A stretch of 64,000 nt of DNA from Myxococcales bacterium (GTDB lineage: Bacteria > Myxococcota_A > Polyangia > Polyangiales > Houyiibacteriaceae), in NCBI GenBank assembly GCA_029862185.1, contig JAOTXX010000002.1:23162-87161 (forward strand), given 5' to 3'. The notes beneath the pieces were generated by a model, which searched no databases, was not told the origin of the DNA, and saw only the letters and a list, made by a program, of their open reading frames with translations. A program made the translations under genes and the position numbers. Positions within the stretch are counted from its first letter, which is position 1; each line of letters starts with the position of its first letter. Positions 2 to 54,324 of this stretch are shown here, in pieces.

Positions 2-1963
2 TCCTCCGTCCTTTTGCGCCGCCTGCACCACGTAGAAGCGACGCGCCTTCGCATCACCGAGGGGCGGGTGGGCCTGCCGGAGCTCGCATCCGGGCACGAG
101 TACTTCGGTTTGCACTTTAGGGATGGTCACTGGGTGCTTCGCGAGTGGGCGCCCAACGCGGTTTCGATCCACGTGAAGGGGCCATTCTCCGATTGGCGGC
201 CGGATCCGAGGTATGCGCTTTCCCGCGAAGGAGGAGAGGGCGTCTGGAAGATCGAGCTTCCCGAGGCGATGCTCTCTCACGGGGATCCCTATCGGCTCGA
301 GGTTCGCTGGCCGGGCGGGGGCGGCGACCGGCTGCCCGCCTGGGCCCGCCGGGTCGTGCGCGATGAGTCGTCGGGCAGCTTCAACGCGCAGGTCTGGCGC
401 CCGTCGAGTCCCTACGTCTGGCGTCATTCGCGGCCCGCTCGTCCGTCGGCGCCGCTGCTCGTCTACGAAGCCCACGTCGGGATGGCGCAAGCGGAACCGA
501 AAGTCGGCACCTACGAAGAGTTCCGCACCAACGTCCTGCCGCGAATCCGGGATGCCGGCTACGAGGCGGTGCAGATCATGGCGCTTGCCGAGCATCCTTA
601 CTACGCCTCGTTCGGGTATCAGGTGTCGAGCTACTTTGCGTGTTCGTCGCGCTTTGGAACCCCCGAAGAGCTCAAAGCCCTGGTCGACGACGCGCACGGG
701 ATGGGGCTGCGCATCTTCATGGACCTGGTCCATTCGCACGCTGGACGAAACGAGGTCGAAGGCATCTCCTCGCAGGACGGCACCCAAAGCCTGTACTTCC
801 ACGAAGGCCCGCGCGGCGAGCATCCGGCGTGGAACTCGCGCTGCTTCGACTACGCCAAGCCTCAGGTCCTCCACTTCTTGCTCTCGAACTGCCGTTTCTG
901 GATGGACGAGTTCCGCATGGACGGCTTTCGATTCGATGGCGTCACGAGCATGCTCTACCTGGACCACGGCCTTTCGCGCGTTTTTGCAGGCTACGACGAC
1001 TACTTCGGTCCGAACGTCGACGAGGACGCGCTCGCTTACCTGACTCTCGCGAACGAGCTGATCCACGAGCTCTGGCCCGACGCGGTGACCATCGCCGAGG
1101 ACGTGTCCGGGTATCCGGGGCTGGCCTCGCCTCTCTCCGACGGTGGCGCGGGCTTCGACTGCCGCTTCGCCATGGGCGTCGCGGACACCTGGATCGAGCT
1201 CACCAAAGACGTGCCCGACGAGAAATGGTCGCTCGCCGAGCTCTGGCATGAGCTGACCAACCGCCGGCGTGACGAGGGGACCATCAGCTATGCGGAGTCC
1301 CACGACCAGGCCTTGGTCGGGGACCAGACCCTCATCTTTCGCCTCATCGGGCCGCGCATGTACGACAGCATGTCAGTCCATAGCCAGGACCTCTCGGTCG
1401 AGCGCGGCATCGCCCTGCACAAGATGATTCGACTCGCCACCTTGGCCACGGCGGGGCAGGGCTACCTCAACTTCATGGGCAACGAGTTCGGGCACCCGGA
1501 GTGGATCGACTTCCCGCGCGAAGGGAACCAGTGGTCCTACGCCTATGCACGGCGGCAGTGGCCGCTCGCTGACGATGAAGAGCTACGCTTTCGCCACCTT
1601 GCCGCCTTCGACCACGATTTGATCGCGATGGCCCGCGCATACGGCATCCCGGACGGCCGGGACGAATTCCTGCTTCATAGCGACGAAGAAAACAAAATCT
1701 TGGCTTGGCTGCGCGGGGAGCTCGTAATTGCCATGAACTTTCATCCGAGTCGCTCGTTCACCGACTACAGGATTCCCTCGTCGCCGGGCACGTACCGCAC
1801 GGTCCTCGATACGGACCGGCCCGAGTACGGCGGCTTCAGTCGACAGGCCGCCGACATTTCCCACCACGCGATGCCCGATCGAATCGAACGGCACTTTCTG
1901 AGCTTGTACCTGCCGTCACGAACAGCCTTGGTGCTCGCACCGGCGACTCGGACAGATCGGTGA
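2..1963 (+). CDS. glgB: 1,4-alpha-glucan branching enzyme, GH13 (eukaryote-like GH13_8 type); 5' end probably outside the window
   Basis: Motifs REWAPNA, YEAHVGM, YYASFGYQV, DGFRFDGVTSMLY, IAEDVSG, YAESHDQALVGD, YLNFMGNEFGHPEWIDFPREGN. The frame is open to the window edge. Confidence 0.93.
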   Translation, partial: SSVLLRRLHHVEATRLRITEGRVGLPELASGHEYFGLHFRDGHWVLREWAPNAVSIHVKGPFSDWRPDPRYALSREGGEGVWKIELPEAMLSHGDPYRLEVRWPGGGGDRLPAWARRVVRDESSGSFNAQVWRPSSPYVWRHSRPARPSAPLLVYEAHVGMAQAEPKVGTYEEFRTNVLPRIRDAGYEAVQIMALAEHPYYASFGYQVSSYFACSSRFGTPEELKALVDDAHGMGLRIFMDLVHSHAGRNEVEGISSQDGTQSLYFHEGPRGEHPAWNSRCFDYAKPQVLHFLLSNCRFWMDEFRMDGFRFDGVTSMLYLDHGLSRVFAGYDDYFGPNVDEDALAYLTLANELIHELWPDAVTIAEDVSGYPGLASPLSDGGAGFDCRFAMGVADTWIELTKDVPDEKWSLAELWHELTNRRRDEGTISYAESHDQALVGDQTLIFRLIGPRMYDSMSVHSQDLSVERGIALHKMIRLATLATAGQGYLNFMGNEFGHPEWIDFPREGNQWSYAYARRQWPLADDEELRFRHLAAFDHDLIAMARAYGIPDGRDEFLLHSDEENKILAWLRGELVIAMNFHPSRSFTDYRIPSSPGTYRTVLDTDRPEYGGFSRQAADISHHAMPDRIERHFLSLYLPSRTALVLAPATRTDR

Positions 1964-3915
1964 GCGACGGAGGTCATGACTGGAAGCCGGAGCAGGCCCG
2001 CAAGTCCTTGGGGCGTTTGCTTCCCGAGCTCGAAGAAGCGTTTGCGGCGCAACTGGAGCCGTTCGCGTTCGACTGGCACCGCTTCAAGAACCGGCTTCAA
2101 CGCGAATGGGAGCGCTTGTTCACGTATCTGCACGAGCTCTACGGCTGGCAGTACGATTTTCACTACACCTTGGAGCGCGTTCTACGCTCATTGATTCAGT
2201 CGTGGCTCGAGCGTCCCGAAGCTTTGCGTCGCCTCGACGAGAGGCGTGAAGCGGACCCCGAGTGGTTCCAGTCGCAGGAGATGGTGGGCATCGTCCTCTA
2301 TGTGGATCTCTTCAGCGACCGCTTGGCCAAGCTCAAGGACCACATCCCCTACTTCAAAAAGCTGGGGCTCACCTACCTGCACTTGATGCCTCTCTTCGTC
2401 TCTCCACACGGAGAAAACGACGGGGGCTACGCAGTCAGCGACTACCGCTCCATCAATCCCGACCTCGGAAGCATCGACGATCTCGAAGAAGTCACCGCGG
2501 TCTTGCGCGAGGAGGGAATCAGCGTCGTGCTCGACCTGGTATTTAACCACACGTCCGACGAACACCAGTGGGCCCTGCGGGCGAAGGCTGGCGATCCAGA
2601 CTTCATGGCCTTCTATTTCACCTTTCCCGACCGTGAGCTCCCCGATCAGTTCCAGCGCTACTTGCGGGACATCTTCCCAGAGGCGCGTGCGGGCAGCTTC
2701 ACCTGGAACGATGAGCTCGGGCGCTGGGTCTGGACCACGTTCAACAGCTATCAGTGGGACCTGAACTATGCCAACGCAGAAGTCTTCCGCGCGATGGCCG
2801 AAGAAATGTTGTTTCTCGCGAACCGCGGCGTCGAGGTCTTGCGGCTCGACGCGGTTGCGTTTCTTTGGAAGCGGCTAGGCACGGACTGCGAGAACCAGCC
2901 TGAGGCGCACACGATCATCCGCGCCTTCAACGCCATGGCGCGAATCGCCGCGCCGGCTTTGCTCTTCAAGTCCGAGGCGATCGTTCACCCGAACGAGGTG
3001 ATCCGGTATGTCCACCCCGACGAGTGCCAGCTGTCCTACAATCCTCTTCTCATGGCGCTTCTTTGGGAGGCCCTGGCGACCCAGGACGTGCGGCTCCTCT
3101 CTCACTCGATGCGCACCCGCTACCGGCTTGCTGCGGGTTGCGCCTGGGTGAACTACTTGCGCTGCCACGACGACATCGGATGGACTTTCGACGATGACGA
3201 TGCGCGCAGCATCGGCATCAATCCAGCCGCACATCGTCGGTTTCTAAGCCAGTTCTACACCGGTGAGTTCCAGGGCTCTTACGCACGCGGGACGAAGTTC
3301 CAGCAAAACGCGCTGACGGGTGACGTTCGCGTCGCCGGGACGCTGTCTTCGCTCGCCGGCCTCGAAGATGCGATCGAACGAAACGACAGCGAGTTGATCG
3401 AGCGCGCTGTCCGGCGGATCACCTTACTCATGGGGATCCAGGTGAGCATCGGCGGCCTCCCGCTTCTGTACGCGGGCGACGAGTACGGCATGATCAACGA
3501 CTACACCTACCTGACCGATCCACGAAAGGTCAACGACAGCCGCTGGGTGCACCGCTGCAAAAAGCGCTGGGAGGCCCAGGAAGACCTCGCCGATGTCGAT
3601 ACGATCGAGTGGCGCTTCTTCCGCGAGACCTCGAAACTGTTCAAGCTCCGAAAACAGCTCCCAGCCCTCTACAACGGTGGCATGGAGGTCGTCGACACGG
3701 GCAATCCCCATCTGTTCGCCTACCTTCGGTCGCACGCCGAGCAGCGCTTGCTGGTGGTCGCCAATTTCTCCGAAGCGACTCAAACGTCCGACGCAAGGTT
3801 CATGCTCCCCTGGGTTCCCGAGGGCGAAGCGCTCGACTGCCTGAGTGGCCACCGGGTCGCGCTCGCCGAGGGGCTCGTCCTCGAGCACCACCGCGCGGTC
3901 TGGTTGGAGCTGTGA
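1960..3915 (+). CDS. amylosucrase/sucrose hydrolase-like GH13_4 enzyme
   Basis: NDGGYAVSDY, RLDAVAFLWK (nucleophile), FKSEAIV (acid/base), YLRCHDDIGW, DSRWVHR. GTG at 1960 overlaps the glgB stop (GTGA). Confidence 0.88.
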   Translation: MSDGGHDWKPEQARKSLGRLLPELEEAFAAQLEPFAFDWHRFKNRLQREWERLFTYLHELYGWQYDFHYTLERVLRSLIQSWLERPEALRRLDERREADPEWFQSQEMVGIVLYVDLFSDRLAKLKDHIPYFKKLGLTYLHLMPLFVSPHGENDGGYAVSDYRSINPDLGSIDDLEEVTAVLREEGISVVLDLVFNHTSDEHQWALRAKAGDPDFMAFYFTFPDRELPDQFQRYLRDIFPEARAGSFTWNDELGRWVWTTFNSYQWDLNYANAEVFRAMAEEMLFLANRGVEVLRLDAVAFLWKRLGTDCENQPEAHTIIRAFNAMARIAAPALLFKSEAIVHPNEVIRYVHPDECQLSYNPLLMALLWEALATQDVRLLSHSMRTRYRLAAGCAWVNYLRCHDDIGWTFDDDDARSIGINPAAHRRFLSQFYTGEFQGSYARGTKFQQNALTGDVRVAGTLSSLAGLEDAIERNDSELIERAVRRITLLMGIQVSIGGLPLLYAGDEYGMINDYTYLTDPRKVNDSRWVHRCKKRWEAQEDLADVDTIEWRFFRETSKLFKLRKQLPALYNGGMEVVDTGNPHLFAYLRSHAEQRLLVVANFSEATQTSDARFMLPWVPEGEALDCLSGHRVALAEGLVLEHHRAVWLEL

Positions 3916-3951: not shown

Positions 3952-5430
3952 CTAGGCGTTTGCGATCGCCTCGGCGGTTCGCACGCCGCCGAGCGCAACA
4001 GCAAGCGTGCTCTGCCCAAGCAGGACGGAATCACCCACGAGATAGAGGCCCGGCGTCGCCTCGCGCGGCCATAGCGCCCGAGGTCGGTAGTGCTTCCATC
4101 CGACGCGCCTCGGCACCCCACCGACGTAGCCCAAGTGCCTTCCGGTGAACCGGGCGAAGGTCCGTGGGCTCGCCGTCATCTGGAACTTGGCATGGTCGAG
4201 AAGCTCGGGCGCGCGCCGTCCGATGGTCTCTCGCATTCGGTTTTGGATGTCCGCAATGTAGACGCCCTGATGTTCGGGCCCGAGCGCGCGGAGCTTCTGC
4301 ATGGGTACGTGGGTCGAAATCGTTGCGGTTCGCTGTCCCGCCGGCGCCCGTTCGTGCTCGTCGGCTGCGCTGATCGAGCAGAAAACGTGATTGCCTTCGA
4401 TGAACGGGGCGCTTTCGTCATCGACGAGCTGCAAATGCTTTGCGTCTGATCCACCCACGGCGTCGGAGTCAACGGCGAGGTAGAGCATGGCAGCGCCCCA
4501 TCCGGACGCCACCGCGGCTTCGACATCGTGAAGCGCGCCATTCACCTCGGGCCCTGCGATTCCCGGGAGCGATTGAGGCAGTACGTTGGCGACGACGGTT
4601 CGCGCTTGGAGCTCCCCATTTCGCGTGTCGACGCGCCAACCTCCGCCTTGGCGCCGAAGCCCCCGAACCCGATTGGCAAGCGAGACCGTGCCACCGGCCC
4701 GATCGATTGCATCGGTCAAAGCCCAGGCGAGGCTCCCAATGCCACCGTGTACGTGGCCTGTGCCGCGGAAGAAGTAGTCGACCGCGGCCATGGCAAATGG
4801 TGCTTCGGCCTCTGCAGAGCTTGCCTGCACCGTGATCTGGCTGACCGCGTCGAGGTAGACCCGCAGTGGTTCCCAGCCTGTCAGACCGTGACTCGACACG
4901 ACGTCCGAGAGCGGTCGTCCCATCCACCGGACGACGGGCGCGTACGAAAGCGACCGGCTCAGATGGCGCAAGACGGCGCTGCCACTCAGTGGCGGGAGGA
5001 GGGTCGGGTCTTCGAACAGCTTCCACAGCGCGTTGGCGACACCGCGCTGCGTAGCAAAAAAGGAGCGCAGGGCTTTCGAATCGGCGCCCGGCAGCTCCGC
5101 GAACCGGCGAACAAAGGCGTCGGGGTCCGGGGGGATCGGGAGCGACCACTGCCCCGTTCGAAGCTCGACGAGCGGATCGAGCGGGTCGAACCGAACGCCA
5201 AGGTCCCACTTGTCGTTCCAGTTGGAGAAGAGCTGCCCATCGCCGAGCCCGGAGAACAGCGTGGCGCCGGCTTCGAACTGGTAGCCGCTCCGCGTGAAGG
5301 TGCTCGCGCAGCCTCCCGGATAGCGAAGTGTTTCACAAAGCACGACGTCGGCGCCGAGCTCGGCGAGTCGCAGCGCGGACGCAAGGCCTCCAAAGCCAGC
5401 GCCAATCACGACGACATCGGGATTTTTCAT
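3952..5430 (-). CDS. FAD-dependent phytoene desaturase family oxidoreductase (CrtD/CrtH-like)
   Basis: VVVIGAGFGG Rossmann motif, PGGCASTF.R.GYQFEAGAT, SPRTFARFT, GLYLVGDS. Start placed at MKNPD. Confidence 0.82.
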   Translation of the reverse strand: MKNPDVVVIGAGFGGLASALRLAELGADVVLCETLRYPGGCASTFTRSGYQFEAGATLFSGLGDGQLFSNWNDKWDLGVRFDPLDPLVELRTGQWSLPIPPDPDAFVRRFAELPGADSKALRSFFATQRGVANALWKLFEDPTLLPPLSGSAVLRHLSRSLSYAPVVRWMGRPLSDVVSSHGLTGWEPLRVYLDAVSQITVQASSAEAEAPFAMAAVDYFFRGTGHVHGGIGSLAWALTDAIDRAGGTVSLANRVRGLRRQGGGWRVDTRNGELQARTVVANVLPQSLPGIAGPEVNGALHDVEAAVASGWGAAMLYLAVDSDAVGGSDAKHLQLVDDESAPFIEGNHVFCSISAADEHERAPAGQRTATISTHVPMQKLRALGPEHQGVYIADIQNRMRETIGRRAPELLDHAKFQMTASPRTFARFTGRHLGYVGGVPRRVGWKHYRPRALWPREATPGLYLVGDSVLLGQSTLAVALGGVRTAEAIANA

Positions 5431-5479
5431 CGAGACCGCTCTAAGGCCCATCGCCAGAAACGTCAGGGCTGAACCAGCG

Positions 5480-5944
5480 CTAGACACCCATGCGTGTGCC
5501 CGCATCGAGCGTCTGGTGCAGCCAATAGGTCACCAGGCCGGCCCTTGCCGACCAGGCGATTGTCCGGAGCCAGTTCGAGCGCACGAGCATGCGCCAGCTT
5601 CGTTCATCGAAACCGGAGGCGAGCTGGCTGTGCGCCGGAACCTGGAGCAGAAACGTCGACGTCCAGATGAACGCGATCAGCCCGATTCCAAGCCAGATTT
5701 GCGATGGGGTCTGGACGCGAAGCGGCGCCCAAAGAAACGCAAGGCCCGAGATCGCTTCGGCGATCATCAAGGGTGCGACGATGAGCGAAATCGAGTTGGC
5801 GTGATGGGTATGAAATGCCGGGAAAGACGCAGAATCCACCTGCGCGAACGACGGATATTGCACCAGCTGTACGAACCAGATGATGCCCGTCATCGCCCAG
5901 GTGGTCGCGGCTTGGATGAGAAGCGTCACCATGGTCACGCCCAT
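5480..5944 (-). CDS. conserved 4-TM membrane protein of unknown function
   Basis: Four hydrophobic segments with MTGIIWFVQLVQYP, QVPAH and NWLRT motifs. Its start overlaps the upstream regulator stop (TAATG). Confidence 0.75.
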   Translation of the reverse strand: MGVTMVTLLIQAATTWAMTGIIWFVQLVQYPSFAQVDSASFPAFHTHHANSISLIVAPLMIAEAISGLAFLWAPLRVQTPSQIWLGIGLIAFIWTSTFLLQVPAHSQLASGFDERSWRMLVRSNWLRTIAWSARAGLVTYWLHQTLDAGTRMGV

Positions 5945-6243
5945 TAGGAACGGACCGCTCGGACGAGCTCGCCTACCGAGTGCTCGGCCTCGATCGGGTG
6001 GCGAAGGGGCTCGCCCTCATTGACTTCGTAGTGGGTTCGGCGTCCCTGTCGGGTTCGAACGATCACCTTGGCCTCCTCCAGCTCCCTGAGGATACGCTGC
6101 ACGGCGCGCTCGGTGACACCCACGGCCTGTGCGATTTCGCGGACGCGGACGTTGGAGTCTCGGGCGATGCAGACCAGTACATGCCCGTGATTACTGAGAA
6201 AAGTCCATGTTGTGGAGGTTTTTGGCGGCCCGTTGCTATTCAT
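5944..6243 (-). CDS. winged helix-turn-helix transcriptional regulator (MarR/ArsR-like)
   Basis: WTFLSNHGHVL...VREIAQAVGVTERAVQRILRELEE...RQGRRTHY...LRHP. Confidence 0.88.
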   Translation of the reverse strand: MNSNGPPKTSTTWTFLSNHGHVLVCIARDSNVRVREIAQAVGVTERAVQRILRELEEAKVIVRTRQGRRTHYEVNEGEPLRHPIEAEHSVGELVRAVRS

Positions 6244-6313
6244 ATGACTTCCTTTACATAAAACACAATGCAGGCATTGACAAGCCTGTATTTCATATCA
6301 TGTTTCAAATCTC
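6244..6313. promoter_or_regulatory. divergent promoter region with an inverted repeat around a TTGACA box
   Basis: AT-rich 70-bp gap between divergent starts. AATGCAGGC (6267-6275) and GCCTGTATT (6284-6292) flank TTGACA (6277-6282). Confidence 0.6.
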
Positions 6314-7996
6314 ATGAATGAAAGGCCTGTAGCCGTCAGTTCCTCACGTCCGTCGCCGCTTCGCCGCGCCCGTCAGCTCCTTGCGCTCGACGGGCAGGAC
6401 ATCGGCGTCATCGTCGTTTACGGCGTGGCGCTCGGGCTCCTCTCGCTCGCGGTGCCCGTCGCGGTCCAGTCCCTCGTCAATACCGTCGCCTTCGGCTCTT
6501 TGATTCAGCCGCTCGTCGTCTTGACGGTCCTGTTGGCCGTCGCGCTGACGGGCGCGGCCATTCTTCGCGCGCTCCAAGTACGCGTGGCCGAGATGCTGCA
6601 GCGCCGGCTGTTCGTCCGCATCGTGACCGAAATCGGTGCTCGTTTGCCGCGCGTCAGCGGCACGGCGCTTCGGGATGCCAATGGGCCCGAGCTACTGAAC
6701 CGGTTCTTCGACGTGTTCACGATCCAAAAGAGCGTGGCCTCGCTGCTCCTTGGCGGCGTCGACGCCGTCCTGATTGCACTGGTCGGCCTGATGGTTCTGG
6801 CGTTCTATCACCCGGCGCTCCTCGCGTTCGACCTGGTGCTCATCGTCGGAGCCGTGCTCGTCTTGATTCCGCTCGGGCGTGGCGGCACAGGCACGAGCGT
6901 CGCCGAGTCCAAAGCCAAGTACGCCGTGGCCGGATGGCTCGAGGAGATGGCGCGGCATCCCCTGTCGTTCAAGCTCGCTGGGGGCGAGGAGCTTGCGCGG
7001 ACCCAAGTGGAGACGCTGGCCAGATCGTATCTCGACAAGCGTGATCGACACTTTCGAGTCGTTTTTCGTCAGCTGGTTGGCGCATTCGCAATCGAAGTCG
7101 TGGCGAGCGTGGCCTTGCTCGCCGTAGGCGGTTTGCTCGTGATCGAGCGTCAACTTTCGATTGGTCAACTCGTCGCCGCCGAGCTCATCGTGACCGCAGT
7201 CGTCGCGTCGATTGCGAAGCTCGGAGGTAAGGTGGAGATTTTTTACGACCTCGTGGCCGCTGTTGACAAGCTCGGCGAGATCCTCGACCTGCCCTTGGAA
7301 CGCCCCGATGGCGAGCTCTCGCCGCCAGGCGGCGGAGCCAGCCTTGGGCTCGTCCTTCACAAAGTGGAGGTCGATCGGGAGCCGGGTGTTGCCCCGCTTC
7401 GAGTCTCGTTCAAGGTCGAACCCGGTGAGCGCCTGGCGATCGCTGGGATGGAACGGGATACCACCGCGACGATCGACGCCATCTTTGGACTACGCGCTCC
7501 GTCCGCAGGCGTGATCGAAATGGACGGGCACGACGTCCGCGACCTTGCCTTGCGCGAGCTGCGCAGCCGCATCGCGCTCGTCCGCGGCACAGAGATATTC
7601 CCCGGCTGCATTTTAGACAATCTTCGCGCCGCGAACCCAGACCTAACTGCCGAGGAGGCATGGGAAGCCTTGGGCCAGGTCGGCCTGGCCGAGACGGTGA
7701 AGGCTCTTCCAATGGGGCTGCAGACGCCGATCCTCAGAGATGGCGCGCCGCTCACGCGAACCCAGGGGATTGCGCTCACGATTGCAAGAGCGGTGGCTGG
7801 AAGGCCCTCCTTGTTGATCCTCGACCGTACCTTGGATCGGATGGCCTCCGACGCAGGCGTCCGCATCGCCGATCGCTTGTCGGCCAAGCGCGATTGCTCG
7901 CTGCTGATTGTTGCCGAGGACGCTGCCGTCTTGGGACGAATGGATCGGCATCTTCAGGTGTCCGACACAATCCGACAGGAAGGAGAGGCAGCATGA
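6314..7996 (+). CDS. type I secretion-like ABC exporter (TMD+NBD) with degenerate nucleotide-binding domain
   Basis: ABC transmembrane domain (VPVAVQSLVN, ELLNRFFDV, IGQLVAAELIV) followed by an NBD-like region (IEMDGHDV, IFPGCILDNL, LPMGLQT, RPSLLILD). There is no Walker A GxxGxGK. Confidence 0.85.
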   Translation: MNERPVAVSSSRPSPLRRARQLLALDGQDIGVIVVYGVALGLLSLAVPVAVQSLVNTVAFGSLIQPLVVLTVLLAVALTGAAILRALQVRVAEMLQRRLFVRIVTEIGARLPRVSGTALRDANGPELLNRFFDVFTIQKSVASLLLGGVDAVLIALVGLMVLAFYHPALLAFDLVLIVGAVLVLIPLGRGGTGTSVAESKAKYAVAGWLEEMARHPLSFKLAGGEELARTQVETLARSYLDKRDRHFRVVFRQLVGAFAIEVVASVALLAVGGLLVIERQLSIGQLVAAELIVTAVVASIAKLGGKVEIFYDLVAAVDKLGEILDLPLERPDGELSPPGGGASLGLVLHKVEVDREPGVAPLRVSFKVEPGERLAIAGMERDTTATIDAIFGLRAPSAGVIEMDGHDVRDLALRELRSRIALVRGTEIFPGCILDNLRAANPDLTAEEAWEALGQVGLAETVKALPMGLQTPILRDGAPLTRTQGIALTIARAVAGRPSLLILDRTLDRMASDAGVRIADRLSAKRDCSLLIVAEDAAVLGRMDRHLQVSDTIRQEGEAA

Positions 7997-9330
7997 AGGG
8001 GAGATCGATCAACGCCGATCACTGGTCTGGCTTCGAACGCGACACGCTTCCGGAGACCCTGGGTGTCCCCGCACCACGGCGAACGATTGTGGTCGCCCGA
8101 ATCTTGGTTGCCGTCTTTCTCACGTTTTCCCTGGCGGCGCTTCTCGCTCCCTGGACGCAGAACATCCGTGGAAGCGGGCGCGTGTTCGCGTATGCACCCG
8201 ATCAACGCCAGCAGCCCGTCGAGGCGACCATCTCGGGGCGCGTCGAAAAGTGGTTCGTGCAGGAGGGGACGCAGGTCAAAAAGGGTGATCCAATCGTGCA
8301 GCTGACGGACAACGACGAATCGATCCTCGACCGTCTTGGGGCGGAGCGAGCAGCCATCGAAGTCCGACGAATCGCGCAGGCGCAGCGCACCGAGACGCTG
8401 AGCAACCGGATCGAATCCGTGCGTCGCTCGCAGCGCGCGGAGATCGCGGCAACCGAGGCGAACATTCAGATTGCACAGCGCGGCGTCGAGGCAGCCCAGC
8501 AGGATGTTGGGGCAGCGACCGCCGAGCTCGAAACGAACGAGCTCAATCTGCGCCGTCAGCGCGGTCTGTTCGACGATGGTCTCGCGTCTCAACGAGAGCT
8601 CGAGCTTGCAGAGCTCGCGGCGCGACAGAGTAGGGCCAAGGTCGCGTCGGCCAATGCAAGGCTATCGGCCTCACGCAATAAGCTGACTCAAAGCCGCGCA
8701 GCGCTCCGACGAGTCATCGCGGCCACCGAGGCGGAGATCGAGAACGCCGAAGCGAGTTGGCGGAGCGCGGAGACCGAGGTCGCATCGACCAACGCGGCAC
8801 TCGCTCGCCTCGACGTGGGAATTTCGCGTCAACGGGCCCAAACGATCAAGGCGCCGACCGACGGGACGATTCTTCGCGTCGTCGGTCGACTCGGCGGTGA
8901 GCAGGTCAGCCGAGGCGATGTGCTCGCCGTGCTCGTGCCCCAGACCGAAGATCGCGCGGTCGAGCTCTATGTCGACGGCAACGATGCCGCCCTCATCAAG
9001 GCCGGCAGCCCCGTTCGGCTTCAGTTCGAGGGCTGGCCCGCTGTCCAGTTCTCCGGCTGGCCTTCGGTCGCAGTCGGAACATTTGGCGGCCGCGTCGCCT
9101 TTGTCGATGCCAGCGACGATGGGCGTGGAGACTTCCGCATCGTGGTCGTGCCTGACCCCGAGGACAGTCCCTGGCCCGCTGCTAGCTATCTGCGGCAGGG
9201 CGTGCTCGCAAAGGGTTGGGTCTTGCTCAATCGGGTCTCCCTCGGGTTCGAGGTGTGGCGGCAGTTCAATGGTTTCCCGCCAACGACCGATCCACCGCCC
9301 ATGGCGACGACCGGCATGGACGCCAAATGA
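7993..9330 (+). CDS. HlyD-family membrane fusion (periplasmic adaptor) protein
   Basis: N-terminal TM, PWTQNIRGSG, lipoyl-like ISGRVEKWFVQEGTQVKKGD, long coiled coil, IKAPTDG, VRLQFEGWPAVQFSGWP. ATGA overlap with the ABC gene. Confidence 0.9.
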   Translation: MKGRSINADHWSGFERDTLPETLGVPAPRRTIVVARILVAVFLTFSLAALLAPWTQNIRGSGRVFAYAPDQRQQPVEATISGRVEKWFVQEGTQVKKGDPIVQLTDNDESILDRLGAERAAIEVRRIAQAQRTETLSNRIESVRRSQRAEIAATEANIQIAQRGVEAAQQDVGAATAELETNELNLRRQRGLFDDGLASQRELELAELAARQSRAKVASANARLSASRNKLTQSRAALRRVIAATEAEIENAEASWRSAETEVASTNAALARLDVGISRQRAQTIKAPTDGTILRVVGRLGGEQVSRGDVLAVLVPQTEDRAVELYVDGNDAALIKAGSPVRLQFEGWPAVQFSGWPSVAVGTFGGRVAFVDASDDGRGDFRIVVVPDPEDSPWPAASYLRQGVLAKGWVLLNRVSLGFEVWRQFNGFPPTTDPPPMATTGMDAK

Positions 9331-10766
9331 GCCTCGCCCAGCGTTTGAGCGTTTTCGTCTTGGGCTTGCTCACGCCGATGGTGGCGCTGGCGAGCGAGGA
9401 GCGAGGGCGGCCGCTCCATTTCGAGGAGGTCCTGCAGTCGGTGAACGAGCACGATCCTCGCATCCGCCAAGCGGTTGCGCAGCTGCGCAAGGCGGAGTCC
9501 AAGACGATGGCGGCCCGCGGCGCGTTTGATCCAAGGCTCGAGGGCGACGGCAAGATCCTCACTGGCGCGTACTACGACTTGCGAAGGGCCAACGTGGAGC
9601 TTCGTCAGCCCACGACGCTATGGGGCTCGGAGATCTTCGTGGGCTATCGCGTCGGTCTCGGCATCAACGAGCGTTGGCCGACCTATCGGGACGATCAAAC
9701 GCTCTCGGGTGGCGAGGTTCGTGCGGGAATCGAAATGCCGATCTGGCGCGGTGGGCTCATCGATCCGGAGCGTGCCGAGCGTGCCCGCGCGATTCAACTG
9801 GAAGAAGCCGCCGACCAAGCCTTGTCGGCCGCAAGGCTCAACCTCGAGCTCGCTGCGGCGCGGACCTATTGGAATTGGGTCGGCACGGGACAGAATAGGG
9901 AGGTCGCCAGAGCCTTGCTCGATTTGGCCGAGCAGCGTGACGCGCAGCTCCGGCGCCGTCTCGCGGCCGGTTCGATCGCGTCTTTTGACGTCGTCGACAA
10001 CGAGCGGATTTTGCTCGAGCGAAAGGCTTTCCTGGTCGCCGCAGAGCGCGCCTTCGAGAAGGCGACCTTCGAGCTGTCGTTGTTTCTGCGTGATTCTCAG
10101 GGTATGCCTGTCGTCGCTGGCGCCCAGCGTGTCCCCGAAAAGGTGTCGGTCATGCCGCTCGAAGAGCTTTCAGTCGAGCGCGCGATCGACGAAGTCCTCG
10201 CCTGCCACCCCGAGCTCAAGAAAGCTCGCGCAGACCTCGACGCGGCCGAGGTTGGTCAAAAACTCAGTCGCAACGAGGTCTCTCCCGAGCTGAACGCGGT
10301 GGTCGCGTACTCCCGCGACCTCGGGGATCTCACCAACACGGATCTAGATTTCACGCTTCCGGGCAATGTGTTCGAGGTCGGCGTGAAGCTGTCGATGCCT
10401 TTGCTGCTTCGCAAGGAGCGCGGTTCGGCGGGGGTCGCAAGGGCGGACGTGGCCGACAAAGCGGCGCAGGTACGCTTGGTGTCCGACCAGCTCCGCGCCA
10501 GGACCCTCGACGCGGCTTCGGCGGTCGAGGCCGCCCAGCGCCGAGCCGAGCTGACCGATGATGTAGTCGACACGGCCGCCGAGCTTGCGGAGGGAGAGCG
10601 ACGGCGATTCGAGGTCGGTTCGAGCAATCTGGTATTCGTCAATCTTCGCGAGCAGCAGGCCGCCATGGCTCAGATGCGCTACATCGAAGCGGTCGCGCAG
10701 GCCGAGATTGAGCGAACCCGCTGGGAAACCACGACCCGTGTCCGATGCGGCGGAGTCCCCCCCTGA
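9327..10766 (+). CDS. TolC-family outer membrane channel
   Basis: Signal peptide, ARGAFDP, PIWRGGLID..RA, YWNW, ERRRFEVGSSNLVFVNLRE. ATGA overlap with hlyD. Confidence 0.88.
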   Translation: MSLAQRLSVFVLGLLTPMVALASEERGRPLHFEEVLQSVNEHDPRIRQAVAQLRKAESKTMAARGAFDPRLEGDGKILTGAYYDLRRANVELRQPTTLWGSEIFVGYRVGLGINERWPTYRDDQTLSGGEVRAGIEMPIWRGGLIDPERAERARAIQLEEAADQALSAARLNLELAAARTYWNWVGTGQNREVARALLDLAEQRDAQLRRRLAAGSIASFDVVDNERILLERKAFLVAAERAFEKATFELSLFLRDSQGMPVVAGAQRVPEKVSVMPLEELSVERAIDEVLACHPELKKARADLDAAEVGQKLSRNEVSPELNAVVAYSRDLGDLTNTDLDFTLPGNVFEVGVKLSMPLLLRKERGSAGVARADVADKAAQVRLVSDQLRARTLDAASAVEAAQRRAELTDDVVDTAAELAEGERRRFEVGSSNLVFVNLREQQAAMAQMRYIEAVAQAEIERTRWETTTRVRCGGVPP

Positions 10767-10836
10767 ACTTGGCACCGTGCTGAGGCTTGCCGAAGTCGAC
10801 TCAAGGCCTAAGAGCTTGGTTCGAAAGGAGTTCGCC

Positions 10837-11307
10837 ATGGATCTGAATACCGGCATCTCATCGGAGCACCGCGAAAAGCTGGCAGCCGAGCTCTCGAGGC
10901 TCCTGGCCGACAGCTACACCCTGTATCTCAAGACGCACAACTTTCACTGGAACGTCACGGGGCCGATGTTCCAAACGCTTCATTCCATGTTCGAGCTGCA
11001 GTACACCGAGCTCGCGATGGCCGTCGACGCGGTCGCGGAGCGCATCCGAGCCCTTGGCCTGCCTGCGCCGGGGAGCTATGCCGCGTTCGGAAGGCTTGCG
11101 AGCGTTCCCGACACCGATGGGGTTCCGAAGGCGCTCGAGATGGTGAAGTTGCTCGTCGAAGCGCATGAGACGGTGATTCGCACCGCGCGCGAAGTCGTGC
11201 GCGCCGCCGAGAAGGCTGGCGATCAGGCCACCGCCGACCTGGGAACGCAGCGCCTCCAGCTCCACGAGAAGACCGCCTGGATGCTCCGAAGCCTGCTCGA
11301 GGACTGA
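10837..11307 (+). CDS. dps: Dps DNA starvation/stationary-phase protection protein (mini-ferritin)
   Basis: LYLKTHNFHWNVTGPMFQTLH...DAVAERIRALG...HEKTAWML. RBS AAGGAG upstream. Confidence 0.95.
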   Translation: MDLNTGISSEHREKLAAELSRLLADSYTLYLKTHNFHWNVTGPMFQTLHSMFELQYTELAMAVDAVAERIRALGLPAPGSYAAFGRLASVPDTDGVPKALEMVKLLVEAHETVIRTAREVVRAAEKAGDQATADLGTQRLQLHEKTAWMLRSLLED

Positions 11308-11362
11308 GTCATCGGCGCGGCAAGGATTTGGCAAACCACCCGCCTGGCTTTAGGGCAGGGGC

Positions 11363-12139
11363 ATGGCTAGAGGCATACGCGACGTGATCCGGCGGGCTGC
11401 GAAGGGCAGCTCGTGGTCGCACTTCATGGATTACGCGTCTCCCGCTTTGTTCGAAGTCATGCCGCTGCGGGCGCTCTTGGCACAGGGCAAAGAGTTCGTT
11501 GCGAATGGTTCGGACGCGCGACGCTACGCGAAAGTGCGCGAGACCATCGCGTCTTCACTGAGCGCGCGCGGCGTCGCTGTCGAGCTTGGGCCACAGGATG
11601 ACGGTGCGGAAGGCCTCGCGCCCCTGAGCCTCTCCGAGCCTTTGCGGCGGAAAACCGGCCATCAGATTCTCGAAATCTATTTCACGCAGATCCTCGCAGG
11701 CCCTGACACGATTCTAGACTTGCGGGCGGATTCGTTCTCCGCGTCCGAGGGCTCGACGCTTCGTTGGCGACCCAAGGCGTTCTATGTCCAATGGCAACCC
11801 GAGTTTCTGACGGGGCTTCGCGACCTCTACTCTGGCTTCTACCTCGATGACGAACCGCGCTTTAAATCGGGCTTGTACCAGTTGGGCCTGCAAGATTCAG
11901 GAGACGCCCTGGTCAGCCATCTGGGCAGCGGCGACCAGCGAAGCGTCCGCTTCGAGACGAGCGCATTTCACACGAGCTTTCACGACACCTTCTTGGCGTG
12001 CCGCGATCGCGGCGTGGCGCTCCATCGAAACTTCCTCGCGCTCGGCATCTATCTAGCATGTCTTTATGACGTGCTCGAGTCACTGGACCTCGAATTCGAT
12101 GTGCGGGGCGCGTTCGAGCGAACCTGCGGGCACAGCTAG
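11363..12139 (+). CDS. hypothetical protein, possibly resembling the C-lobe of ABC1/UbiB atypical kinases
   Basis: 258-aa ORF in the co-oriented gene run. ILEIYFTQIL and LHRNFLALGIYLACLYDVLESLDLEFDV echo UbiB C-lobe patterns (by eye only). Confidence 0.6.
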   Translation: MARGIRDVIRRAAKGSSWSHFMDYASPALFEVMPLRALLAQGKEFVANGSDARRYAKVRETIASSLSARGVAVELGPQDDGAEGLAPLSLSEPLRRKTGHQILEIYFTQILAGPDTILDLRADSFSASEGSTLRWRPKAFYVQWQPEFLTGLRDLYSGFYLDDEPRFKSGLYQLGLQDSGDALVSHLGSGDQRSVRFETSAFHTSFHDTFLACRDRGVALHRNFLALGIYLACLYDVLESLDLEFDVRGAFERTCGHS

Positions 12140-51655: not shown

Positions 51656-52444
51656 ATGCAGGAAACCAAGGTTGTTCGGCCGTTTCCGTTTTTTCGGGCG
51701 GGCGCACGCGCGAGTCAACCCCAGCTGTCGAAGCCGATTCTGGTGTTGGAAGACGTCTACAAGTTTTTCCGGCCTGACCAGCCGACCCTACGCGGTGTCG
51801 ATCTGAAGGTTGAGCGTGGGGAGTTCGCGTTCATCACGGGGCCCAGCGGCGCAGGCAAGAGCACCCTGTTGAAGCTCGTTTACCGTGAGCTCACCGTCGA
51901 CGAGGGGCGCGTGCTGTTCTGCGGTCGAGACATCTGCAGGCTGACCGACAAGTCGATCCCATTCCTGCGACGAAACCTCGGCGTCGTCTTTCAGGACTTT
52001 CGAATCATCGACCATTGGACGGTGTTCGAAAACGTCGCCGTCGCGCTGGAGATCGTCTCGATGCCCAAACGGCTCATTCGATCACGGGTTGCAGAAGCGC
52101 TCGAGCGGGTTGGCCTCGCTGGTCGCGGTCCGGAGCTGATCACGAACCTATCAGGCGGCGAGCAGCAGCGCGTCGCCGTAGCAAGGGCGATCGTGCCGGA
52201 GCCAGCGCTCATCTTGGCGGACGAGCCCACCGGGAACCTCGACCCACATCTCGCCATCGACATTCTGACTCTCTTCGAGGAGATCAACTCGACCGGAACC
52301 ACCGTGCTGTTTGCAACGCACGACCACTCCCTCATTTCCAAGCGAGACCACCGTTTGATCTCGATCGACGAAGGCCGAGTTTTGGAGTCTCAGCAGGGCC
52401 TCAAGCACTGGCCAGGCAGCGGCATTCACACGATGGCAGGGTGA
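51656..52444 (+). CDS. ftsE: cell division ATP-binding protein FtsE
   Basis: GPSGAGKST, IPFLRRNLGVVFQDF, LSGGEQQRV, ADEPTGNLD, ATHD. Upstream of ftsX. Confidence 0.93.
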   Translation: MQETKVVRPFPFFRAGARASQPQLSKPILVLEDVYKFFRPDQPTLRGVDLKVERGEFAFITGPSGAGKSTLLKLVYRELTVDEGRVLFCGRDICRLTDKSIPFLRRNLGVVFQDFRIIDHWTVFENVAVALEIVSMPKRLIRSRVAEALERVGLAGRGPELITNLSGGEQQRVAVARAIVPEPALILADEPTGNLDPHLAIDILTLFEEINSTGTTVLFATHDHSLISKRDHRLISIDEGRVLESQQGLKHWPGSGIHTMAG

Positions 52445-52448
52445 AACG

Positions 52449-53330
52449 ATGGACTTGAAGAACGCAATCGTGCGGGCGAGGCGAGGGCTTCGCGAAGAAC
52501 GGCGCCTCTACGTGGTGGCGGTGACGAGCTTGGCTGTCGCCTTCATTTGCCTCGGGGCGACGCTGCTCGGGGTGACGAACCTCGATGCAGCCGCGACGCG
52601 CTGGGGGCAGAGCGGGCGCATCACGGTCTTCTTGAAGGACGGCGCCGATGCGCAGGACGTGGCCCAGCTTCGGGTCGTGCTGGAAGGTTTGGCCGATGTG
52701 GAAGCAGTGACGCACGTCACTCCGTCGCAGGCGCGCAATTCGTTCCTCGAAGAGGCCGACGTCGGTGCGGACCTGAGCGCGCTTCCGTCCGATGTGTTTC
52801 CGGCCTCCCTCGAAGTGACCCTGGTCAACGGAGTCACCAGGGAGCGCGGCGAATCGATCGCGTCGCGACTCGCGCAGTTCCGTGCGGTGAGCGATGTGGA
52901 AAGCTACGGGGCGTGGTTCCAAAAGCTGGACCAGCTGCTCTGGGGAGCCCGAATGCTGGCTCTGGGCCTCGCGCTGCTGGTCATGTTTTGCGTGGTGGCG
53001 GTCATCGGCAACACGATCCGATTGGCCGTCGCGCGTCGGCGTCAAGAGATCGAGGTCATGAAGCTGTGCGGGGCGACCAACGGCTTCGTCAGAGGTCCGT
53101 TCGTTTTGGAAGGGATGTTCCAGGGCTTCGCCTCGGCGCTTGTTGCCGTGCTTGCGCTCCTGGTTGGCTATCTCGCCCTTCACGAATCGGTGGATTCGAC
53201 CTTAGCTGCCCTGACCGGAAGCCGCGTGGTGTTTCTCGGTGCTTGGACGCTCGTGGCGCTCCTCGTCGGCGGCGCGCTGATCGGCGCAATTGGCAGCGCC
53301 GTCTCGGTGCGCCGTTACCTTTCGGTGTGA
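52449..53330 (+). CDS. ftsX: cell division permease FtsX
   Basis: TM, periplasmic domain, then 3 TM; NTIRLAV..RR.EI.VMKL.GAT..FVR.PF..EG. Confidence 0.93.
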   Translation: MDLKNAIVRARRGLREERRLYVVAVTSLAVAFICLGATLLGVTNLDAAATRWGQSGRITVFLKDGADAQDVAQLRVVLEGLADVEAVTHVTPSQARNSFLEEADVGADLSALPSDVFPASLEVTLVNGVTRERGESIASRLAQFRAVSDVESYGAWFQKLDQLLWGARMLALGLALLVMFCVVAVIGNTIRLAVARRRQEIEVMKLCGATNGFVRGPFVLEGMFQGFASALVAVLALLVGYLALHESVDSTLAALTGSRVVFLGAWTLVALLVGGALIGAIGSAVSVRRYLSV

Positions 53331-53331
53331 C

Positions 53332-54324
53332 ATGAAAACCAAAAGTAGATTCTGGGTTTGGGTTTCGGTTGGGCTTTTGGTCGTGGCCGCTGGCGCCGCG
53401 GCCGAGCAGGACCTGGGGATCGGCGGCCTCACCGACGTGGCAGCGGTCGAAGGGAAAATCGCAGAGAACCTCGCTCGTGTGGAGCACGCGCAGACGCGAC
53501 AGGCCCAAATCGACACCGAGATCTCCGGCTTGGCCGACAAGCGCGAGGAGGCCGAAGGACGGCTGCACGAGCGCGCAAGGGCTCTCTACCGCATTCGACG
53601 CGCAGGCATGCTTCCGGTGGCGGGCGGATTCGACGCCTTGATGGGTCACTTGGCTCGGGTTCAGCGGCTCTCGCGCATGGTCAAGAGCGATCTGGAGACG
53701 ATGGACTTTCTCGGGGAACGAGGCTCGGCGCTTCGTATCGAAAAGAACGAGCTTGCCGATGTGCTAGAGGCGGCGCAGCTGGCATTGCATGCGCTCGAAG
53801 GCAAGAAGGTAGAGCTCGAGCACAGCAGCAGAAGCGCATCGTTGTTTCAGGACACACTCCGCGGCGAGCGGCAAGATGCTCCCCGCGACGACGAGGGCAT
53901 GAGCTACGGCCGCATTCGAGTTTCCGGTGACATGGATGACCTCGGCGACGGCTTCGCGCAGATGCGCGGCCAGCTGGCTCTGCCGGTGCAGGGCTCGATG
54001 CGGATCGGCGAAAGCTCTAGGGAAGGCGCGCCCGGCCTGGAGTTCTACGGACGGCCCGGCGGCCCGGTCCGCGCCGCAGCCGATGGAAGGGTGGCCTTTG
54101 CCCGCGTTTACGGCGCCTACGGACTGATGGTCATCATCGACCACGGAAGCAGCTTTTACACAGTCTATGGCGGTCTCGGCTCGACCGACGTCGAGGTCGG
54201 CGACTGGGTCGGCATGAGCACTCGGATTGCGACCCTCGAGAGCGTTGGGCCCGATGCGATTCTCTTCTTCGAAGTCCGAAGGGGAACCCGACCGCTAGAC
54301 GCCCGTAGCTGGCTCGGGTTGTAG
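53332..54324 (+). CDS. envC: EnvC-like murein hydrolase activator (coiled coil + degenerate M23/LytM)
   Basis: Follows ftsEX. Signal, coiled coil, G.L..PV.G, VRAAADGRV, YG.MVIIDHG, FEVR. The Zn ligands HxxxD/HxH are absent. Confidence 0.82.
   Translation: MKTKSRFWVWVSVGLLVVAAGAAAEQDLGIGGLTDVAAVEGKIAENLARVEHAQTRQAQIDTEISGLADKREEAEGRLHERARALYRIRRAGMLPVAGGFDALMGHLARVQRLSRMVKSDLETMDFLGERGSALRIEKNELADVLEAAQLALHALEGKKVELEHSSRSASLFQDTLRGERQDAPRDDEGMSYGRIRVSGDMDDLGDGFAQMRGQLALPVQGSMRIGESSREGAPGLEFYGRPGGPVRAAADGRVAFARVYGAYGLMVIIDHGSSFYTVYGGLGSTDVEVGDWVGMSTRIATLESVGPDAILFFEVRRGTRPLDARSWLGL

Follow-up and report, generated by a model that had tools for sequence, protein, structure and literature searches.

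Degenerate ATP-site motifs in the conserved ABC subunit of a myxobacterial ABC-HlyD-TolC operon

Introduction

Can an exporter of the ATP-binding cassette (ABC) type be kept in its operon after the consensus elements of its ATP site have been replaced? The question is raised by a 64,000-nucleotide stretch of a Myxococcales bacterium genome (assembly GCA_029862185.1, contig JAOTXX010000002.1, positions 23,162 to 87,161; hereafter the window), in which a gene for a 560-residue ABC half-transporter is followed by genes for a HlyD-family periplasmic adaptor and a TolC-family outer-membrane factor. Tripartite envelope pumps have inner-membrane engines of the ABC type, driven by ATP, or of the resistance-nodulation-division (RND) or major facilitator superfamily (MFS) type, both driven by the proton-motive force. 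In the window protein the ATP-site motifs are degenerate, its nearest relatives share the replacements, and the gene is under purifying selection. With confidence a little above even, we read it as a homodimeric ABC-fold conduit subunit that acts with HlyD and TolC without being run by its own ATP hydrolysis, its nucleotide-binding domain (NBD) serving as a structural clamp. A literature search that left subscription journals outside yielded no account of the family, nor of any natural ABC exporter whose two sites are both dead and whose operon also encodes a membrane fusion protein (MFP) and an outer-membrane factor (OMF).

Motifs and predicted fold of the ABC protein

The initial annotation had described a lesion-free frame with degenerate Walker A, signature, Walker B and H-loop strings, joined to an intact transmembrane domain (TMD), HlyD and TolC by ATGA overlaps. 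Each of these points was confirmed. The frame is open from 6314 to 7996, all four strings fall at the canonical positions when the protein is aligned to P-glycoprotein with phmmer (Table 1), and the two downstream genes start at 7993 and 9327 and encode HlyD and OEP domains. At Walker A the aligned core reads AGMERDTTAT against GSSGCGKST. The same alignment adds a point absent from that annotation, the replacement of the Q-loop Gln by Arg424; of the catalytic set formed by Walker B, H-loop and Q-loop, the Walker B Asp alone is retained.

Domain scores show how far the protein has diverged from its families. Its Pfam ABC_tran (PF00005) score of 33.2 bits lies above the cut-off of 25 and is weak beside the 76-131 bits of 30 canonical NBD matches in the same genome, and this gathering score is reached with Walker A, the signature, the Walker B Glu, the H-loop His and the Q-loop Gln all missing. 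ABC_membrane (PF00664) scores 19.6 bits, under its cut-off of 28. Judging from these replacements, the NBD can probably no longer bind or hydrolyse ATP.

The fold is predicted to be retained in full. An AlphaFold2 (AF2) model with a mean predicted local distance difference test (pLDDT) score of 85.2 has the complete type-IV exporter fold including the NBD, and Foldseek matches it to TmrAB, PCAT1 and HlyB with template modelling (TM) scores of 0.84-0.88. Six long transmembrane helices, an elbow helix, two coupling helices and a domain-swapped fold, as seen in the AF2 secondary structure and the Foldseek matches, place the protein among the type IV transmembrane domains. A prediction of the NBD homodimer (score 0.00) weighs neither for nor against such a dimer.

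Conservation and selection

The degeneracy is fixed throughout the genus-level clade. Among the 120 nearest cluster representatives (67-94% identity), none has GK[ST] at Walker A; Walker B reads (L/I)DR and the Q-loop position is Arg in all 120, and in most the first signature Gly is Arg. Of 24 further genomes of the genus, 20 have the ABC gene, and the frame is open across all listed orthologues. For substitution rates, the Nei-Gojobori method was applied to 12 orthologous genes (66 pairs); the 27 pairs with a synonymous divergence (dS) below 1.5 were kept and the others dropped as saturated. The ratio of nonsynonymous to synonymous divergence (dN/dS, or omega) lay between 0.025 and 0.159 in the TMD and between 0.128 and 0.341 in the NBD, the NBD value lying above that of the TMD in 27 of 27 pairs and far below 1. 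Purifying selection acts on both domains, and it constrains the TMD 2 to 5 times as strongly as the NBD. The earlier argument against simple decay is thus strongly supported, by dead motifs in 120 of 120 nearest relatives together with purifying selection, and both of the checks that had been proposed for it gave clear answers: no orthologue among the 120 has the Walker A Lys, and selection on the NBD is not relaxed.

The sequence itself is sound. Contigs from independent sediment runs show zero differences, one (X2) spanning 7059-7773 and another (X4) 7271-7550, and no indels occur in any of four runs, one of which may be the window's own source sample. Assembly error is excluded.

A multi-phylum family with a mosaic of motif states

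Orthologues with 34-54% identity and the same ABC-HlyD-TolC order occur in other families of the order, and this gene order is kept in 11 of 12 distant loci (the twelfth ends at a contig edge) and in most of 80 further loci. The family is present in 60 of 301 sampled genomes of the phylum. A collection of genomes at species level contains at least 593 of its loci, with record titles naming Myxococcota, Planctomycetota, Acidobacteriota, Verrucomicrobiota, Bdellovibrionota, Leptospira, methanotrophs and Ca. Uabimicrobium.

When 148 family representatives (E<1e-118) were compared, a strict Walker A together with the catalytic Glu and His was present in 12, Walker A only in 54, and all three had been lost in 33. 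The Walker B Asp is followed by Gly in 64 and by Glu in 42, 7 have the Q-loop Gln, and the Asp itself (Asp504 of the window protein) is kept in 98% of the family. Counted over 81 genome-locus rows, with three rows cut by contig ends scored as lacking the missing motifs, 35 retain just Walker A, 16 retain none of the three and 8 are canonical. Both paralogues of one genome (G033) are fully canonical; other members drop Glu, His, signature or Walker A in varied combinations. A FastTree phylogeny built on TMD columns only (149 rows) implies at least 33 changes for Walker A and at least 36 for the Walker B Glu, both counts being inflated by tree error, and with this many changes of motif state hydrolysis looks dispensable in the lineage. 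By its motifs, the window protein stands at the far extreme of this large family, which spans several phyla and in which NBD decay is mosaic.

A distant second clade from Verrucomicrobiota and Phycisphaerales (L079, L083, L091, L096, L104 and L105) has lost the Walker A Lys (GSGxST), keeps the Walker B Glu in four of six members, and has Glu at position 261 of the fifth transmembrane helix (TM5), where the family mostly has Gln. In another genome (G037, L025:2236-4685) the orthologous ABC gene is split across two overlapping frames, TMD and NBD, with a canonical Walker A (GGAGAGKST); the split reflects a frameshift or a sequencing error.

Most members (119 of 148) also carry an N-terminal extension of about 165 residues, with no Pfam match in the 8 representatives scanned. 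Its model (pLDDT 90.7) resembles the PCAT1 PEP, ComA and HlyB's C39-like domain (CLD), with TMq of 0.5-0.58. This domain has no invariant Cys or His, and a C39-like fold of that kind makes the lineage CLD-type in the sense given in an excerpt of PMC8277102. The domain has been lost in the window protein, which has no N-terminal C39-like region. Searching its profile against PDB sequences returned only low-complexity TAL-repeat noise, the C39-like fold being seen by fold search alone.

Transmembrane residues and linkers

The TMD has a set of invariant residues specific to the family (P48, E93, R98, N129-R130, K139, Y165-H166-P167, S199, K202, Q253, G284-Q285, A288, E290, Y311-D312 and K319), several of which lie at periplasmic turns in the helix register of the model. 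The window clade adds two acidic positions, D150 in TM3 (120 of 120) and E261 in TM5 (119 of 120), positions at which most of the family carries a small residue and Gln, respectively. As raw counts, an acidic residue at 150 or 261 occurs in 19 of 48 Walker A-negative versus 11 of 101 Walker A-positive rows.

A His-rich linker directly precedes the elbow helix in ~30% of members (44 of the 148 representatives; 25 of 80 loci); the window protein has none. These linkers are rich in His, Gly and Asp, with 4 to 12 His per 40 residues, and end in (H)P(S/T)P (L030-L106, P0124-P0273). Their composition suggests that they bind metal in the cytoplasm.

Interpretation

In the reading that we prefer, the ABC protein would be the inner-membrane subunit of a tripartite ABC-HlyD-TolC envelope conduit and would act as a homodimer, its NBDs persisting as a clamp that holds the coupling helices; conservation of the Q-loop/X-loop region, the D-loop and the Walker B Asp suggests that the NBD is kept for this role. 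Substrate would pass through a TMD-HlyD-TolC duct, driven by something besides the subunit's own ATP hydrolysis. The likeliest driver would be the proton-motive force or the membrane potential, acting on H166, E290, Q285 and the clade-specific D150 and E261, and a gated facilitator would be the alternative to driven transport.

Several observations weigh against this reading. Judged from sequence, ATP might still bind at an unconventional pocket, and two canonical half-transporters elsewhere in the genome remain formal partner candidates. Selection on the NBD (omega ~0.13-0.34) means that this domain has some role, and that the role is that of a passive clamp is what we infer. With the query used, four of the 24 genus genomes gave no match, and two of these four are 95-100% complete; the gene is therefore dispensable. 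About 8-10% of the family is fully canonical, so the ancestral machine was ATP-driven. The case for proton or ion coupling is built only from conserved or clade-specific polar residues whose membrane position comes from the helix register of the model, and the apparent link between an acidic residue at 150 or 261 and Walker A loss was rejected by an independent-pairs test (0.7 same versus 1.6 opposite, median p = 1).

A bolder version of the same idea, which we hold only tentatively and think rather doubtful, is that the machine of the window clade has been fully converted to a secondary, proton- or cation-coupled tripartite exporter whose substrate could be divalent metal cations. The choice of metal cations follows from the His-rich linkers in ~30% of members, the recurrent ArsR/SmtB-type regulators, the invariant TMD His, Glu and Gln, and the clade's D150 and E261. 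If true, this would be the first ABC-fold counterpart of the RND/MFS-TolC pumps.

The wider interest lies in an ABC-fold engine that selection retains without a consensus ATP site, within a family that shows canonical, binding-only and fully dead stages. Such a natural series can be used to ask what ATP binding and hydrolysis give type-IV exporters and machines resembling type I secretion systems (T1SS), and it bears on how a primary transporter may be converted into a secondary transporter or channel. Thousands of such genes are misleadingly labelled 'ABC transporter ATP-binding protein'.

Alternative explanations

According to an excerpt of PMC7756269, one ATP site comprises the Walker A, the Walker B and the A-, Q- and H-loops from one NBD together with the other's signature and X-loop, and heterodimers in which one site is degenerate are numerous among ABC exporters, a precedent for supposing that the dead subunit pairs with a canonical half-transporter that supplies one working ATP site. 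The statement that the locus has no partner ABC gene stands for the window: the only other PF00005 match on the contig is FtsE, which we rejected as a partner and which lies beside FtsX and an M23 peptidase at 51656-54324 (+), in a cluster of the cell-division amidase activation type. The proposed search of the window's own genome (4.29 Mb, scored 100% complete) found just two other half-transporters with both a TMD and an NBD, one MsbA-like and one CydD/MsbA-like (Table 1). Their strong PF00005 scores (113 and 87 bits) and PF00664 matches would suit such a partner, but both look like housekeeping exporters, with no HlyD-type adaptor gene within 3.6-3.8 kb around each, and nothing in the genome matches TIGR01843 better than the HlyD of the window does. 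Across ~100 loci examined, no partner ABC gene adjoins the operon, and the family flanks hold no second type-IV ABC gene, their ABC matches being unrelated CcmA/CcmB (one locus) and MacB-type proteins (in at most 5 loci). Known degenerate subunits, moreover, keep a consensus signature that completes the site of the partner; here it reads LTRTQ, and both composite sites would be impaired. With the P-loop side and the signature side both degenerate there is no consensus ATP site even in a heterodimer, and one gene that is degenerate on both sides gives a homodimer without a working site. The protein accordingly has neither the adjacent partner gene nor the one consensus composite site of the heterodimeric exporters, and we consider a heterodimer improbable. 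Of the three options that the initial annotation had offered, ATP-independent export and a scaffolding pseudo-ATPase stay viable and are combined in our preferred reading, and the heterodimer has lost ground on account of the signature.

Somewhat less improbable is that the protein is no longer a transporter at all and that ABC-HlyD-TolC is kept as a structural or signalling scaffold spanning the envelope, for tethering or sensing for example, with nothing passing through it. The strongest conservation, at the periplasmic TMD turns NTVAFG..QP, AFYHP..LLAFD and GQLVAxE, could mark an adaptor-docking surface, and no cargo gene was found, the only RTX protein having a Sec signal and a sorting tail. 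Against a scaffold, residues lining the transmembrane helices are near invariant (P48, E93, R98, K139, Q253, E290 and K302), canonical and presumably pumping members share the TMD motifs, and regulator-controlled three-gene operons of the efflux type are typical of transport. Lower than the heterodimer we place a protein that is still an ATPase, or ATP-gated, and binds nucleotide unconventionally; it would explain why the NBD fold and Asp504 are kept and the NBD is under purifying selection, and the 54 of 148 representatives with Walker A but without Glu and His suggest that binding without hydrolysis is useful in the family. In the window clade, however, the P-loop Lys/Ser, the signature Ser-Gly-Gly, the Glu, the His and the Gln have all gone together, and we know of no P-loop NTPase that works without the GK[ST] Lys. 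The last possibility, a gene heading for loss under relaxed selection or a sequencing or assembly artefact, could draw on the faster evolution of the NBD and on the four genus genomes without a match; it is already effectively refuted by the open frames in all listed orthologues, an omega far below 1 in both domains, the identical replacement residues fixed in 120 of 120 relatives and the same sequence in independent runs. From likeliest to least likely, the rivals therefore run from the non-transport scaffold through the heterodimer with a housekeeping exporter and unconventional ATP binding to decay.

Comparison with known systems

The nearest known machines are the HlyB-HlyD-TolC T1SS and the PCAT exporters (PDB 7SGR/8DCK; PCAT1 4RY2/8VOX), which have the same three-component genes and order and the same type-IV exporter fold (TM score 0.84-0.86 to HlyB and PCAT1). 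Most family members also share with the HlyB CLD an N-terminal C39-like domain without the conserved catalytic Cys/His, as that CLD is described in the excerpt of PMC8277102. Unlike HlyB and PCAT, the window protein has neither any ATP motif nor a CLD, lies near no RTX or leader-peptide cargo gene, and has TMD invariants of its own (YHP, GQLxAxE). The operon does bring together the ABC, MFP and OMF genes of a T1SS, but the curated NCBIfam models all fall far short of their cut-offs, both for the ABC component (TIGR01846, 88 of 726 bits; TIGR03375, 125 of 693; TIGR01842, 82 of 510) and for the MFP (TIGR01843, 89 of 208.65) and OMF (TIGR01844, 43.5 of 225). In this T1SS-like set the motifs argue against ATP-driven translocation.

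The best-scoring NCBIfam model for the ABC protein is that of the NHLP bacteriocin export ABC2 family (TIGR03797), yet its 150.7 bits fall well short of the 709.4 required. Members of that family function together with another ABC subunit (TIGR03796), whose gene lies next to theirs, and no such subunit is present at the window operon.

Foldseek ranks heterodimeric ABC exporters in which one site is degenerate as the closest structural neighbours. TM287/288, TmrAB, BmrCD and MsRv1273c/72c likewise have natural non-consensus residues at the Walker B Glu, the H-loop and the signature, but exporters of the TM287/288 type keep Walker A in both subunits and one fully consensus site, and the window protein has neither.

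The ABC-type TMD of SbmA is powered by protons, according to excerpts of PMC8442886 and PMC13316013. The SbmA/BacA (SLiPT) peptide transporters would thus resemble the window protein, as we read it, in having an ABC-exporter-like TMD without ATP hydrolysis. SbmA has no NBD, is an importer and lacks HlyD and TolC partners, whereas the window protein retains a dead NBD, present in the AF2 model, which sets it outside the SbmA/BacA-like group.

Operon organization and neighbouring genes

The features of the operon, together with the two paralogous half-transporters, are collected in Table 1.

Table 1. Features of the ABC-HlyD-TolC locus and paralogous half-transporters (positions in the window unless a contig is named)
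Feature	Size	Position	Strand	Remarks
ABC half-transporter	560 aa	6314..7996	+	Stop-free open reading frame; elbow helix, six transmembrane helices (~14-330), degenerate NBD (~345-550)
Former Walker A	residues 375-386	7436..7471	+	AIAGMERDTTAT vs canonical GSSGCGKST; no GK[ST] (phmmer alignment to P-glycoprotein)
Former signature	residues 480-484	7751..7765	+	LTRTQ vs MSGGQ of P-glycoprotein (consensus LSGGQ)
Walker B remnant	residues 500-505	7811..7828	+	LLILDR vs LLLDE; Asp retained, catalytic Glu replaced by Arg
Former H-loop	residues 532-536	7907..7921	+	IVAED vs VVAHR; His replaced by Glu535
HlyD-family periplasmic adaptor	445 aa	7993..9330	+	HlyD_3 46 bits, Biotin_lipoyl_2 42 bits; ATGA overlap with ABC stop
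TolC-family outer-membrane factor	479 aa	9327..10766	+	OEP 156 bits in two stretches; ATGA overlap with HlyD stop
ArsR/SmtB-like winged-helix regulator	99 aa	5944..6243	-	Divergent to ABC gene; conserved NHxH and RHPIE motifs
Intergenic region, AT-rich	70 bp	6244..6313		Gap between regulator and ABC gene; presumed divergent promoter/operator
Hydrophobic protein	154 aa	5480..5944	-	Downstream of and co-directional with regulator; no Pfam match
MsbA-like half-transporter	605 aa	contig C88		PF00005 and PF00664 matches
CydD/MsbA-like half-transporter	573 aa	contig C168		PF00005 and PF00664 matches

A regulator of the window type adjoins the operon in the genus loci and in L017, L022 and L025, and in four of six further loci of other phyla that hold such a regulator it lies divergently beside the ABC gene. 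A sigma-70 consensus scan of 5400-11500 found no site, and no RNA run is listed as carrying the operon. The 154-residue hydrophobic protein is kept only in closer relatives (L004-L011, L027, L028), and its tie to the export system is uncertain. Upstream of the operon, 14-3915 (+) and 3952-5505 (-) encode a GlgB-like branching enzyme, a TreS-like alpha-amylase-family protein and a CrtD-like FAD desaturase, whose synteny holds in the two closest genomes (L027, L028) and no further.

No conserved cargo gene was found in the flanks of the family operons, either by Pfam (117 flank open reading frames, 12 loci) or by clustering (3695 flank open reading frames, 78 loci). The lone RTX-repeat protein of the genome (L107:4321-8031, contig C100; 1236 aa) carries an N-terminal signal peptide and, close to that end, ~12 calcium-binding RTX repeats; it also has a peptidase domain of the C25 (gingipain) type, a Gly-rich spacer and a Cys-containing C-terminal tail of hydrophobic and Arg residues, which we take to resemble the myxobacterial C-terminal sorting signal. 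On account of its Sec signal, peptidase and sorting tail we rejected it as T1SS cargo. The search for a cognate T1SS cargo thus yielded no flank gene and no suitable RTX protein, small GG-leader peptides lying outside it. Recurrent neighbours do include regulators, of the LysR type in 14 loci and of ArsR types in 13 and 6 loci, and the lack of an adjacent cargo gene together with divergent ArsR/LysR-type regulators favours a small solute or ion as the substrate over a dedicated protein cargo.

SulP-carbonic anhydrase fusions stand beside the family operons, upstream, in four loci (L045, L058, L069 and L079), and an SbtA-like bicarbonate transporter gene lies downstream in another (L023:7339-8457); other flank genes are unrelated. 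A link to anions or inorganic carbon is possible from these neighbours. A ribosome hibernation factor (Ribosomal_S30AE) is encoded directly upstream in seven loci, mostly planctomycete, on the same strand in L036, L038, L040, L049, L062 and L066 and on the opposite strand in L077, which hints at stationary-phase or stress expression of the operon.

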